Of a stretch of 64,000 nt of DNA, positions 51,133 through 62,188 are shown piece after piece (positions within the stretch are counted from its first letter, which is position 1; each line of letters opens with the position of its first letter). The translations under genes were made by a program, and so were the position numbers. The notes beneath the pieces were generated by a model that did not search any database, was not told the DNA's origin, and saw only the letters and a program-made list of their open reading frames with translations. The stretch comes from Eledone cirrhosa (Eukaryota): positions 54,002,001 to 54,066,000 of the forward strand of contig OZ024744.1 of the NCBI GenBank assembly GCA_964016885.1. Direction: 5' to 3'.

Positions 51133-51242
51133 CTCGCTGATGAAGCAGCATAAGCCGATTGTGCATTGTTGCATAATATATGCAGACAGATAGTGCAGTG
51201 CACGTTACTGCTGCATTAGTGCTGCAGAAACTCGAGTCCGGG
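51133..51242 (+). ncRNA. Type I hammerhead ribozyme, extended stem II, palindromic stem III
   Basis: ctcg CTGATGA a gcagca...tgctgc a GAAA ctcgag TC cggg. Confidence 0.7.
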
Positions 51243-51540
51243 AACCTTATGTGCACCCAATTTACGTGTGTTGTGTTGAGGCAAATAACTATGTGTGTGA
51301 GACACGTAATGTATCTTACATTGTCCATTGAGTGCGCTGAGATACAACCGGTACTGGCATTGAAAAATATGGTGGGTCCGTCAACCCTTATTATTATTAT
51401 ATATATATATATATATATATATATATATATATATATATATATATATATATATATGTAGGAGGTGAGTTTTATTGTAGTACAATAAAGCAATGCAGATATC
51501 GGATAAGAAGCACTCTACAGTTTGTAGGACTGGAGTATGC

Positions 51541-51878
51541 ATAATATAAGATCAAAAGATGGTTAAAGGAGTTCCATGTATTTTATTATGCGCATTTCAA
51601 AAACAAACATCATCATGCAATAATATTTGTGTTTTCATCAGATAAAACAGGAGAACATGATATGAAGGCTAAAAAACACTTGTGGATAGTGCAGTTTTAA
51701 ATCAACATATATGTTGATTTAAAACTGCACTATCCACAAGTGTTTTTTAGCCTTCATATCATGTTCTCCTGTTTTATCTGATGAAAACACAAATATTATT
51801 GCATGATGATGTTTGTTTTTGAAATGCGCATAATAAAATACATGGAACTCCTTTAACCATCTTTTGATCTTATATTAT
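51541..51878. repeat. 338-bp perfect spacerless palindrome
   Basis: Arms are reverse complements around 51709/51710 (aaatcaacata|tatgttgattt). Confidence 0.92.
51770..51840 (+). ncRNA. Type I hammerhead ribozyme (mirror copy on minus strand 51579-51649)
   Basis: tgttttat CTGATGA ..acaaatatt/gatgtttgt.. GAAA tgcgca TA ataaaata. Confidence 0.7.
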
Positions 51879-52073
51879 ATATATATATATATATATATAT
51901 ATATATATATATATATATATATATATATATATATATAAATATATATATGTAATCTAAGATTTTCGAATATAATAATAATATTCGATTCGTTTGCAATTAT
52001 TTATGCAAACAGCCTCGTTTAAGGCATGTCAGTAGAATGAGCCCCTCATTTTTGCTCTTGTGTTGGCATGTAA

Positions 52074-52120
52074 ACTGTACTGATGAAGGGTAATCACCCA
52101 GAAACATCAGTGTCTGCAGT
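52074..52120 (+). ncRNA. Type I hammerhead ribozyme in the loop of a long inverted repeat
   Basis: actgta CTGATGA a gggt aatc accc a GAAA ca tcag tg TC tgcagt. Confidence 0.75.
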
Positions 52121-59150: not shown

Positions 59151-59592
59151 CTGCACGAGGAGATCATAGCATCATATACTTGTGACACAGCCAGAATCTG
59201 GTGACAAGCAAATACAAGATGATTTGTAGCTGTATCAACCGCAGGTATTTCAGAGTGTCCTCTAAAAAAAAGTTTTTCCAGATAAATAATAATTAGGTAA
59301 AATAGTTTAAATGAAAGTTATTTAAAAGATTAAAAGACAAAAAGAAAAATAAATGAATAAATAAATGAAAATAACATGCACACGCAAATTTACACACCTA
59401 AACAGTATATATATCTATCTATCTATCTATCTATCTATCTATCTCTCTCTCTCTATATATATCTATCTATATATATATATATATATATATATATATATAT
59501 ATATATATGCAAAAGTTTTATTTAAAATTGTTGGGTTACAACGAGTAAATATTTTATAACTGATATAAAGCACTCAACAAGTTTTGGAGTAG

Positions 59593-59895
59593 ATATACGA
59601 TATTAAACAAATGGAAACTATATTTATAAAACCATATTTATTTCATTATACATATTTCAGGGATACCATATTAAAAATATGGCATGCCTTCTTCAGATAA
59701 ATTACAATATATAAGCAGTTTTATAAATAAATTTGACGTACCATAAAATATTGATCAACTTCCATTTAAAAAAGTTGGTTATGTATTTTATCTGAAGAAG
59801 GCATGCCATATTTTTAATATGGTATCCCTGAAATATGTATAATGAAATAAATATGGTTTTATAAATATAGTTTCCATTTGTTTAATATCGTATAT
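59593..59895. repeat. ~108-bp inverted repeat (59593-59701 / 59787-59895), PLE pseudo-LTR type, hammerhead in each arm
   Basis: Arms are reverse complements; flanked by (TA)n. Confidence 0.85.
59784..59849 (+). ncRNA. Type I hammerhead ribozyme
   Basis: tattttat CTGAAGA agg..atgccatatt/aatatggtat..cct GAAA tatgta TA atgaaata. Confidence 0.7.
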
Positions 59896-59909
59896 ATATA
59901 TATATATAT

Positions 59910-62188
59910 AACGGAGGAAATGTGGTAAGGAACCAGGTGGACCATAACGCACCAAAGTACTCAATACTTAGGGTAGTAGAGTGGGTAATAGGTACGAGTA
60001 GGACCCCGACGGCAGAGCTCAAGCCGTTTCGACAGCTAATTCTGGACTAAATGAAAATTTTTATCCTGGTATTTGAATAGCCGAGCTTCTCAAGGGGTAA
60101 TTCCATATATGGTAAAAGTGATTGTCACAAGGATTGGTCAAAAGTTTGTTGTTAAGATATAATAATTCTATCATGGCAATTTGTGGAGGGAAGGGGTAGC
60201 TGAACCTGCCAGTAGGAGAAAGAGGGAGAGGGGTGGAGGAGACCCAGTCATGCGTTGATAGTGCCGACTACAGCTGGGCATGAGGTCAAAGAAGATACTA
60301 GGGAGGGGGAGGGGGAGGAAGTCGAAACAATAAGTAAAACAATATGGGGTAAATATATAGAAAAATACTGAGTTTGTTAAAAAGCAATTAAATGTAAAAG
60401 AAAAAAAAAAAAAAACTGTTTCTGGTTACTACAACCTAAGGACAGCTATCAAGTCTCTCACTGGTACTGCTAGGCTAAAGAAAGGTTACTAGGTGGGACG
60501 GAATTATACAGAGACCCTTTTAAGAGGTATAAGTAAAAAACCGAGTATATCTTACGGTGGCGGGTCAACAAATGAGGGGCCAAAATACTAAAGAAACTAC
60601 CACGAAATAATAAATAAAGGTTTCTACCCCAGGCACAAGGCCAGAAACCACCCAGTGCAAAAAAATAAACTAATACGAAATAATAATTCAGAATTCCGAA
60701 AAAGAATACTAATACTATCTCTAAGGTGGCCGCCAAGATACAAAAATTCTAGTGCAAACTACATAAATGCTCGTACGAAGTATATGTAAAATTTGATACG
60801 GAAAATTAATTCAGAACCCCCCCCCCCCCCCAAAAAAAAATAAATACTGATATACGAGAAATTAAAGCAAAGATACCCCTAAGAAATATAGAAAGCACGG
60901 AAAAGGGGCAGCGATCGGATAAGAAGGCAAGTATCCAGGGTCTAACACATCTGCTATAAAAAGCGGAGTCGGCCAAATCTACCACAGAATAGAGGAAGGG
61001 GTGGGGGTACTGAGGCTACAAAGGACCGAGGGGTTGCCTCGGGTGGGCGAGAAAATGAAAAGGACGACGACAAAGAAAGAGGACTGGGGTGGAAGGACTA
61101 GGGGTGGGTGGGGGATGAAGGAAATATAGAGGAAGCGATAAAAAGATATAAAAGAAGATCTTACGTCTACCTTTGCAAGCAGGGGTTACCCATTACAAAA
61201 TCGGCAAGTGGGGTGTTATAGCCCTAGTCACCCCCCACCCCCCGGGTCATTATGGGGTTTGAGGGCGAGGTAAGTCCTACGCAATCTGTGTTTACATGCA
61301 GTAACCAGTTCGTCTTTCTTGTTTAGGAGTTGGTCCGTCGAAAACAGCATTTGTAAAGTTTCCTCCGAGCATAAATTGCACGGACGGCGTCCTCCCGTGT
61401 AAGAGTTGGCTCTGGACAGTAGTGAGATCATAGGTAATGTTGTTATCCTTGAGGTCCCATATGTGGCCCGAAAGTGTAGTGGAGTGACGCCGGGCCGGGT
61501 TTCGGAAGGTATGTATGTGTTGGTATAGCCGGGTCTTGAAGTCACATGCGGTTAAACCTATATAAGCTTTGTTGGAGATGTCCGTCCTCACGTTGCACTG
61601 GTAGATCACATTACGATCTCTGCATCTGTTGTCGAGGGGGCAAATTGATCCATCAGGGTCCCTGTATAATTCCGTCCCACCTAGTAAACCTTTCTTTAGC
61701 CTAGCAGTACCAGTGAGAGACTTGATAGCTGTCCTTAGGTCGTAGTAACCAGAAATTGTTTTTTTTTTTTTTTTTTAATTTTACATTTAATTGCTTTTTA
61801 ACACTCTCGGTATTTTTTCTATATATTTACCCCATATTGTTTTACTTATTGTTTCGACTTCCTACCCCTCCCCCTCCCTAGTATCTTCTTTGACCTCATG
61901 CCCGGCTGTAGTCGGCACTATCAACGCATGACTGGGTCTCCTCCACCCCCTCTCCCTCTTTCTCCTACTGGCAGGTTCAGCTACCCCTTCCCTCCACAAA
62001 TTGCCATGATAGAATTATTATGTCTCAACAACAAACTTTTGACCAATCCTTGTGACAATCACTTTTACCATATATGGAATTACCTCGTGAGAAGCTCGGC
62101 TATTCAAATACCAGGATAAACATTTTCATTTAGTCCAGAATTAGCCGTCGAAACGGCTTGAGCTCTGCCGTCAGGGTCCTACTCGTTC
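59910..62188 (-). mobile_element. 5'-truncated Penelope-like insertion: GIY-YIG fragment flanked by ~525-bp inverted pseudo-LTRs
   Basis: VIYQCNV..KAYIGLT..FKTRLYQH, CNLC..E, LNKKDE..CKH (61228-61650); 59994-60517 is the reverse complement of 61656-62186. Confidence 0.85.
60003..60098 (-). ncRNA. Hammerhead with U3-A8 core variant (mutated mirror copy ~62082-62177, + strand)
   Basis: Minus strand acccc TTGAGAA g..cggcta/tagctg..c GAAA cggc ttgagctct gccG TC ggggt. Confidence 0.6.

Follow-up and report, generated by a model that had tools for sequence, protein, structure and literature searches.

Three described systems come closest to the hammerhead-bearing repeats analysed here, which lie in a stretch of 64,000 nucleotides of the Eledone cirrhosa genome (contig OZ024744.1, positions 54,002,001 to 54,066,000; hereafter the window, in whose own numbering all positions are given). 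The first is the Hydra clade of Penelope-like elements (PLEs) with a C-terminal endonuclease (EN+). In the available text of PMC8557442, this clade is characterized by one open reading frame (ORF) of about 700 residues with the motifs RW[KR] and DKT, a CxCX5C linker and, at the C terminus, a GIY-YIG domain with CxxC and CxH, by insertion into (TA)n with inverted 5' copies, and by a 3' type I hammerhead with an extra base after A9 and a palindromic stem III. These features are shared by the repeats of the window. That text lists 27 families and calls its additions few, whereas at least seven families and tens of thousands of copies were found here. The present elements also differ by their length of 3-4 kb, their long 3' untranslated regions (UTRs) and their U3:A8, C3/A8 and U4A hammerhead cores.

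The second system is represented by the minimal hammerheads of PLEs. The accessible part of PMC4209133 reports U3-A8 covariation, an unpaired base between positions 9 and 10.1, a palindromic helix III and opposite-strand pairs 100-700 bp apart, all of which are seen here. In contrast, the 5-bp stem III of the families named E and F below can fold as a monomer, stem II regions reach 85 nt, and family F displays a U4A core, a variant that the accessible part of that source does not mention. The third system comprises the non-LTR (long terminal repeat) retrozymes, which are tandem units that lack an ORF and carry one type I hammerhead, with a GC content below 45% and strong self-pairing (PMC7229834 and 10.64898/2026.07.22.740005, in the portions at hand). 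Comparable units of 430-435 nt in the window fall within the size range of 150-450 bp given there, and a unit of 840 nt within the range of 51-972 bp. In contrast to those retrozymes, most of them are 5'-truncated monomers scattered over (TA)n tracts and show inverted copies of the PLE type; they are known from DNA alone.

Set beside these systems, the stretch of about 12 kb examined here is very probably a nest in which Hydra-clade PLEs and retrozyme-like repeats, each with a predicted hammerhead near its 3' end, are piled up in TA microsatellites. The cluster is made of known kinds of elements, with new members, an unusual abundance and one odd core. Our confidence in any claim of cleavage by these predicted hammerheads is much lower than in this overall account.

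Hammerhead motifs and their families

The region between 50.5 and 62.3 kb of the window is AT-rich and contains 20 tracts of (TA)6 or longer, in a genome of 3.0 Gb. An initial annotation, made from the sequence of positions 51133 to 62188, had reported at least eight type I motifs in about 11 kb. All eight sites and their three mirrors do exist. A structure-based type I scan (core CUGANGR or UUGANAA, stems I-III, GAAA and UH site) detected eight motifs in 50.5-62.4 kb and none in positions 1-50,500; the mean over 60 dinucleotide shuffles was 0.03-0.12. When a bulged stem II is permitted, nine cores are recovered (51137+, 51641-, 51778+, 52080+, 53413-, 54608+, 59696-, 59792+ and 60093-), and the total reaches 13 once variant and broken cores are counted. 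Three cores come in addition to those listed initially, namely 50535+ (UUGAAAA), 54897- and 52567- (both CAGAAGA). Several copies of the window are decayed: the core at 54608 carries A9G (CUGAUGG), the copy at 53413 has lost the palindromic CUAG loop and the core at 62087+ reads GUGAGAA. A hairpin at 56062-56135 was rejected as a hammerhead by the same scan.

The core CUGANGA with GAAA, UH and stems I-III in type I order is found in the families A, B51, C, D and B59; the E families comply through a U3:A8 pair, and family F departs at U4. The CUGANGA-type core initially assigned to each site is thus correct for most of them, but the sites 56174, 60003 and 62087 have a U3:A8 core. The sites themselves were correctly placed, while those at 53378, 56174 and 60003 all belong to the minus strand. 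The families cannot be called unrelated in sequence, as had been proposed: identity is 72% between the sites 56174 and 60003 and reaches 98%, over 57 nt, between 54601 and 59784, and 51770 aligns with both of the latter. The palindromic stem III was recognized rightly and is present in most families. A stem III hairpin is predicted to be impossible in the monomers of A, B51, B59, C and the window's copy of D; predicted stem III homoduplexes are good in A and B51, and E1 and F form a 5-bp monomer stem.

An origin of these motifs as chance matches in AT-rich, palindromic DNA could call on the lack of any Rfam match and on a satellite at one sampled locus (L181) that yielded nine false hits. Its probability is practically nil, and it is already refuted by three observations. 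Sixty-eight evenly spaced 10-kb samples, representing 0.02% of the genome, gave 74 raw motif hits against one in the same samples after shuffling; the families are present in thousands of copies; and the stems covary. Of the eight predicted stem II pairs, seven show compensatory changes among 16 B-type sequences (less than 88% identity), and three pairs do so among 19 E-type sequences; the covariation test covered stem II of these two groups.

Coding Hydra-clade families and their inverted copies

Five families (B51, B59, E1, E2 and F) are assigned to the 3' ends of protein-coding Hydra-clade PLEs, on the basis of their continuity, in other copies, into Hydra-type genes for reverse transcriptase (RT) and GIY-YIG endonuclease. 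The PLE origin proposed initially is therefore upheld, although the clade had not been named. Two GIY-YIG ends are present in the region. The first belongs to a 5'-truncated PLE of family F (54843-56060, minus strand), composed of a GIY-YIG end (55596-55970), a 3' UTR, a U4A core at 54897 and an inverted tail (55963-56060). A second fragment of this family (52505-52679, minus strand) is severed exactly at its core (CAGAAGA, 52567) and has an inverted tail at 52564-52679. A first look at the genome gave 59,683 candidates for the GIY-YIG sequence at 55596, of which 150 were scored, at 95-100% identity. Three copies of family F contain open frames of 702-713 residues with the motifs RWR, SDKTGN, CNCRNRVDC, YIG, CDLC and CKH, which are diagnostic of the Hydra clade in the available text of Craig et al. 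(PMC8557442), and the protein resembles Hydra-1_Obim by eye. The same Hydra motifs occur in copies of E1, B51 and B59. This GIY-YIG sequence was also considered as the parent of the hammerhead at 56174; this was rejected, because the full-length copies lack that motif and bear their own hammerhead at the 3' end.

The second GIY-YIG end (about 61255-61642) is included in family E1, a 5'-truncated PLE at 59905-62192 with parts on both strands: a minus-strand part (61657-59905) with the core UUGAGAA at 60093, and an inverted plus-strand copy (61655-62192) with the decayed core at 62087. In locus L246, E1 displays the arrangement pLTR-ORF-pLTR (pLTR, pseudo-LTR). Family E2 is represented by a 3' UTR (56157-56884, minus strand) with the U3:A8 core UUGAUAA at 56264, and broken remains of an ORF lie upstream of it in loci L279 and L284. 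Family B59 occupies 59510-59898 on both strands, with a minus-strand core at 59696 and an inverted copy whose plus-strand core is at 59792; a related 3' end (54506-54700, plus strand) carries the decayed core at 54608. In locus L248 the B59 end continues into a 1.7-kb 3' UTR and then an ORF, and coverage drops steadily upstream from the hammerhead to the ORF, as expected for 5' truncation. Family B51 (51455-51878, both strands) has a minus-strand core at 51641 on its long end and an inverted copy with a plus-strand core at 51778 on its short end, and runs into an ORF in loci L344 and L346. A broken RTE-like element, with remains of an apurinic/apyrimidinic (AP) endonuclease and an RT, lies between E2 and B59 (56885-59261, minus strand); a relative of it adjoins the B59 element in L248.

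All five families show a single ORF with the RT followed by a C-terminal GIY-YIG domain, which for E2 was read from broken pieces. The DKT motif in place of DKG and an RWK-like motif were observed as RWR and SDKTGN or SDKTNN in F, E1 and B59; B51 displays DKT without a detected RW[KR], and neither was seen in E2. The CxCX5C linker is present, together with CxxC and CxH at the C terminus, except that CxH is unmatched in B51; no CCHH was seen in F by eye. Insertion into (TA)n is common to these families. The length generally below 3 kb, a soft feature of the clade, is exceeded by F (about 3.2 kb) and by B59 and B51 (near 3.5-4 kb), owing to their long 3' UTRs. Assignment to the Naiad or Chlamys PLEs, which have an N-terminal GIY-YIG and no canonical hammerhead, does not agree with the C-terminal endonuclease and the hammerheads found here. 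A tree of 47 endonuclease segments, all of them taken from this genome, resolves F, E1, E2, B51 and B59 as distinct, along with two or more additional families, and pairs E1 with E2 (100/99) and B51 with B59 (96/94), in agreement with the kinship of their hammerheads. The genome-wide search for copies recovered thousands of exact-pattern matches per family, 17,739 for B51, 16,619 for F, 5,803 for B59 and 3,853 for the E type; an inverted insertion contributes each of its two ends to these counts, and diverged copies escape them. The mixture of autonomous and non-autonomous elements described initially is real, but most of the families then taken as non-coding are 5'-truncated ends of coding Hydra-clade PLEs.

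Each of the families concerned has two 3' ends. The (TA)n tract starts past the anchor at 85 or 5 nt in E1, at 120 or 28 nt in B59 and at 146 or 56 nt in B51, and the comparable difference in F is about 95 nt. In inverted insertions a long end is paired with a short end (8 of 8 in B59, 6 of 6 measurable in B51, 3 of 6 in E1), and the inverted 5' copies stop 80-95 nt before the main end. This pairing indicates that the mirrors noticed initially, which are present as reported (that of 60003, at 62087+, in decayed form), are not separate motifs but parts of single insertions. An inverted 5' copy with a tail of 30-40 bp has been described for PLEs, and the part of the work of Frangieh et al. at hand (PMC11167929) attributes this structure to two RT start sites; another PLE studied there in vitro used two such sites, and its hammerhead was dispensable, catalytic mutants being inserted normally.

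From known PLE biology, the Hydra protein would nick (TA)n and prime reverse transcription at the target. Reverse transcription would begin at two sites on the RNA and leave TA on both sides, so that each insertion would offer the next target and nests would grow. The short palindromic stem III hammerheads (A, B51, B59 and D) may cleave in dimeric form, within tandem or read-through transcripts, and so yield monomers or circles. In the coding families, cleavage is likely helpful but non-essential, in which case cores such as U4A could become fixed.

Retrozyme-like units and neighbouring sequences

Three families are composed of tandem units without an ORF, of 840 nt (A), 430 nt (C) and 435 nt (D). 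Family A is represented by a 5'-truncated copy (50660-51395, plus strand) with its core at 51137, which ends in (TA)n; its hammerhead has a stem II region of 85 nt and the palindromic stem III ACUCGAGU. A piece of the unit of family C is found at 51943-52250 (plus strand, core 52080), where an inverted 5' copy (51943-52082) creates a long hairpin. Family D is present as about 1.4 units of a 433-435-nt tandem repeat (53162-53759, minus strand, core 53413). In other loci, D forms a tandem of 433-435-nt units with four cores in a row (L147), A forms head-to-tail dimers of 830-840 nt at two independent loci (L074 and L075), and C a partial dimer of 430 nt at one locus (L052). The monomers have a GC content of 36-42% and circular folds with z values of -4.0 (A), -6.4 (C) and -6.7 (D), the signal of D arising partly from internal TA palindromes. 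The longest Met-initiated ORF in A is 106 residues, and no Hydra ORF was found collinear upstream of A, C or D in the 24 best loci examined per family. As tandem type I hammerhead units without coding capacity, with a low-GC and highly self-paired monomer, A, C and D fit the non-LTR retrozymes as far as their sequences allow such a classification.

These three families could instead be truncated pLTR pieces of coding PLEs that were not sampled. B51 and B59 had likewise seemed short and non-coding until long copies turned up, and the copies inspected are the 24 best per family. We consider such an origin unlikely, since head-to-tail repeats close the unit (L074, L075, L052, L147 and L087) and the loci examined show no collinear Hydra ORF upstream. 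Taken as retrozymes, A, C and D may be mobilized in trans by the same Hydra protein, by analogy with known elements.

Several points weigh against the overall account of a nest of Hydra-clade PLEs and retrozyme-like repeats. The assignment to the Hydra clade is drawn from motifs and from comparison by eye with Hydra-1_Obim and Hydra-2_Amil, the endonuclease tree containing no reference proteins. Pfam recognized neither an RT nor a GIY-YIG domain in the ORF, and the closest clusters in the Atlas consist of eukaryotic proteins of equal length, with PF26215 in 25-31% of neighbour members. The Rfam comparison that had been suggested initially as a check (cmscan, E<=1) gave no hammerhead among 93 matches, only microRNA-like hairpin noise and one tRNA. 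In the covariation analysis the cores belonged to the search pattern, so that their invariance is partly forced, and conservation within these young families barely exceeds that of the flanks and is uninformative. The inverted tails of 80-95 nt exceed the 30-40 bp described for PLEs. Finally, A and C are supported by two and one tandem loci, respectively, and may have a longer coding parent; their mobilization by the Hydra protein, like that of D, is inferred.

A further fragment, of family G (50492-50592, plus strand), carries the U3:A8 core UUGAAAA at 50535 and lies outside the interval of the initial annotation. Ten homologues were detected in the 680 kb of samples, which corresponds to perhaps 40,000 copies genome-wide. 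At least ten further hammerhead families were met outside the window (loci L158, L162, L169, L176, L177, L204, L206, L211, L257 and L345). Their stem III loops include CCACUGG, GAAC, CAAUUG and CUACGUAG, and some stand in direct repeats of 317, 483 or 595 nt that are probably more retrozyme-like units. The single tRNA match (Rfam, 49.7 bits; 52820-52890, minus strand) is enclosed in a short unit with AT flanks, which is probably a short interspersed nuclear element (SINE) derived from a tRNA.

The first 50 kb of the window are GC-richer and packed with non-LTR retrotransposon ORFs; they constitute a nest of their own, made of non-LTR elements and devoid of hammerheads. Two near-identical open ORFs of 1141 residues (RVT_1) are located at 240-3665 (plus strand) and 43227-46652 (minus strand) and end at (AAT)n. 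They display by eye a C-terminal zinc knuckle and a restriction-like motif, and further pieces occur at 6134-8332 and 48719-49438; we take these elements to be R4/Dong-like. Positions 8719-14220 and 32705-42864 contain several L1/Tx1-like elements, which have an ORF1, an AP endonuclease and an RT. At the other extremity, a short repeat that recurs often among the loci retrieved is present twice in diverged form (77-83%), at 62529-62701 and 63647-63823. The contig set itself is strongly bimodal, with four contigs of 379-443 Mb and many of 29-136 Mb.

Abundance, core variants and the role of cleavage

In the 68 samples, motif counts track TA tracts (rho 0.61). Removal of the L181 satellite and of motifs with a stem III spacer above 17 nt reduced the 74 raw hits to 58; 39 of the 68 samples then contain none and the maximum is 5 per 10 kb. 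By extrapolation from these samples, the genome would contain about 256,000 motifs (bootstrap 172,000-353,000). The association with (TA)n claimed initially holds across these samples, as 50 of the 58 motifs (86%) have (TA)5 within 350 nt downstream, a share that is 42% for positions taken at random from them. The locus exceeds the genome average about tenfold: its best 10 kb holds nine motifs, above the sampled maximum, and the six neighbouring 10-kb stretches hold none. Such a contrast speaks for a special landing zone, as proposed initially, or for a functional ribozyme cluster such as a trap resembling a PIWI-interacting RNA (piRNA) cluster. Nevertheless, we hold this to be very unlikely. 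The genome carries about 0.85 motifs per 10 kb, a negative-binomial fit predicts roughly 380 windows of 10 kb with at least nine motifs, the counts follow TA tracts, many of the copies are decayed, and the window was chosen for its density. The locus is likely one of hundreds of similar TA-rich nests.

The cores of some families depart from the canonical form. E1 and E2 have U3:A8 cores, and among the first 100 listed of 3,853 E-type matches a hand count gave 63 U3:A8, 33 unpaired C3/A8, 4 U3/G8 and no C3:G8. The U3:A8 pair is known in PLE hammerheads (available text of PMC4209133), and hammerheads with this pair are active (PMC3088659, likewise in part). G7 is present in 30 of the 33 C3/A8 cores; this form would break the pair, or would re-register as CUGA-GA without N7. 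Family F has 16,619 matches, and in each of the first 100 listed position 4 is an A; the U4 form has 93 matches. Judged from its sequence, family F has a fixed U4A change in the predicted catalytic core, with more than 16,000 exact matches. We compared 81 aligned copies, of which 15 have U4 (14 of the 24 loci fetched for U4, plus L128). A status of the U4 copies as an older active subfamily was rejected, as no column is private to them and older-type copies are mostly A4; five loci contain both U4 and A4 copies, which points to U4 arising by change after insertion. Every Hydra hammerhead in the table of Craig et al. that was available (PMC8557442) is CUGANGA, and U4C occurs in viroids. No natural U4A hammerhead was found in the literature searched, to which the article of Lunse et al. 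2017 on PLE variants did not belong, so that a prior report is possible.

The fixation of A4 in F and the unpaired C3/A8 cores of the E type raise the question of whether the motifs of the coding families are still ribozymes, or have been retained for a structure that the RT recognizes (as its start site or for binding) or through hitch-hiking; the insertion of catalytic mutants in vitro (PMC11167929, in its accessible part) also speaks for such a loss. We judge it rather unlikely, although less so than the truncated origin of A, C and D. Family F retains all three helices, GAAA and UH, the U3:A8 pair is compensatory, and most families keep canonical cores across deep protein divergence. Moreover, U4 seems tolerant of change, as the available text of PMC4075628 reports no hit at U4 among inactivating changes and no U4 escape mutants in a phage selection.

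In the axolotl, 126,247 hammerhead motifs were reported (PMC7229834) in 28.21 Gb (10.64898/2026.07.22.740005), figures taken from the accessible parts of both sources and obtained by counting methods different from ours. We put forward, tentatively and with more doubt than belief, that, of all animals described so far, E. cirrhosa bears the densest load of hammerheads, about 250,000 in 3 Gb, driven by the expansion of the Hydra clade, which is supposed to be rare, and that its top coding family was amplified with the ribozyme lowered or off through the fixed U4A change, the C3/A8 subfamilies being a second case.

With these families the Hydra clade, of which a few dozen families were listed, becomes a dominant class of repeats, and three retrozyme-like units are gained whose target and end structure are common to the Hydra-type PLEs; all these motifs are overlooked by Rfam. 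In PLEs the hammerhead is conserved, although insertion in vitro was normal for mutants of its catalytic function (PMC11167929, as far as available). Young sister families with canonical, U3:A8, C3/A8 and U4A cores coexist here at thousands of copies in one genome, so that cleavage rate can be compared directly with copy number. If amplification with a lowered or silent ribozyme is true, these families would represent a natural case in which the transposition of PLEs can dispense with cleavage or is even held back by it.

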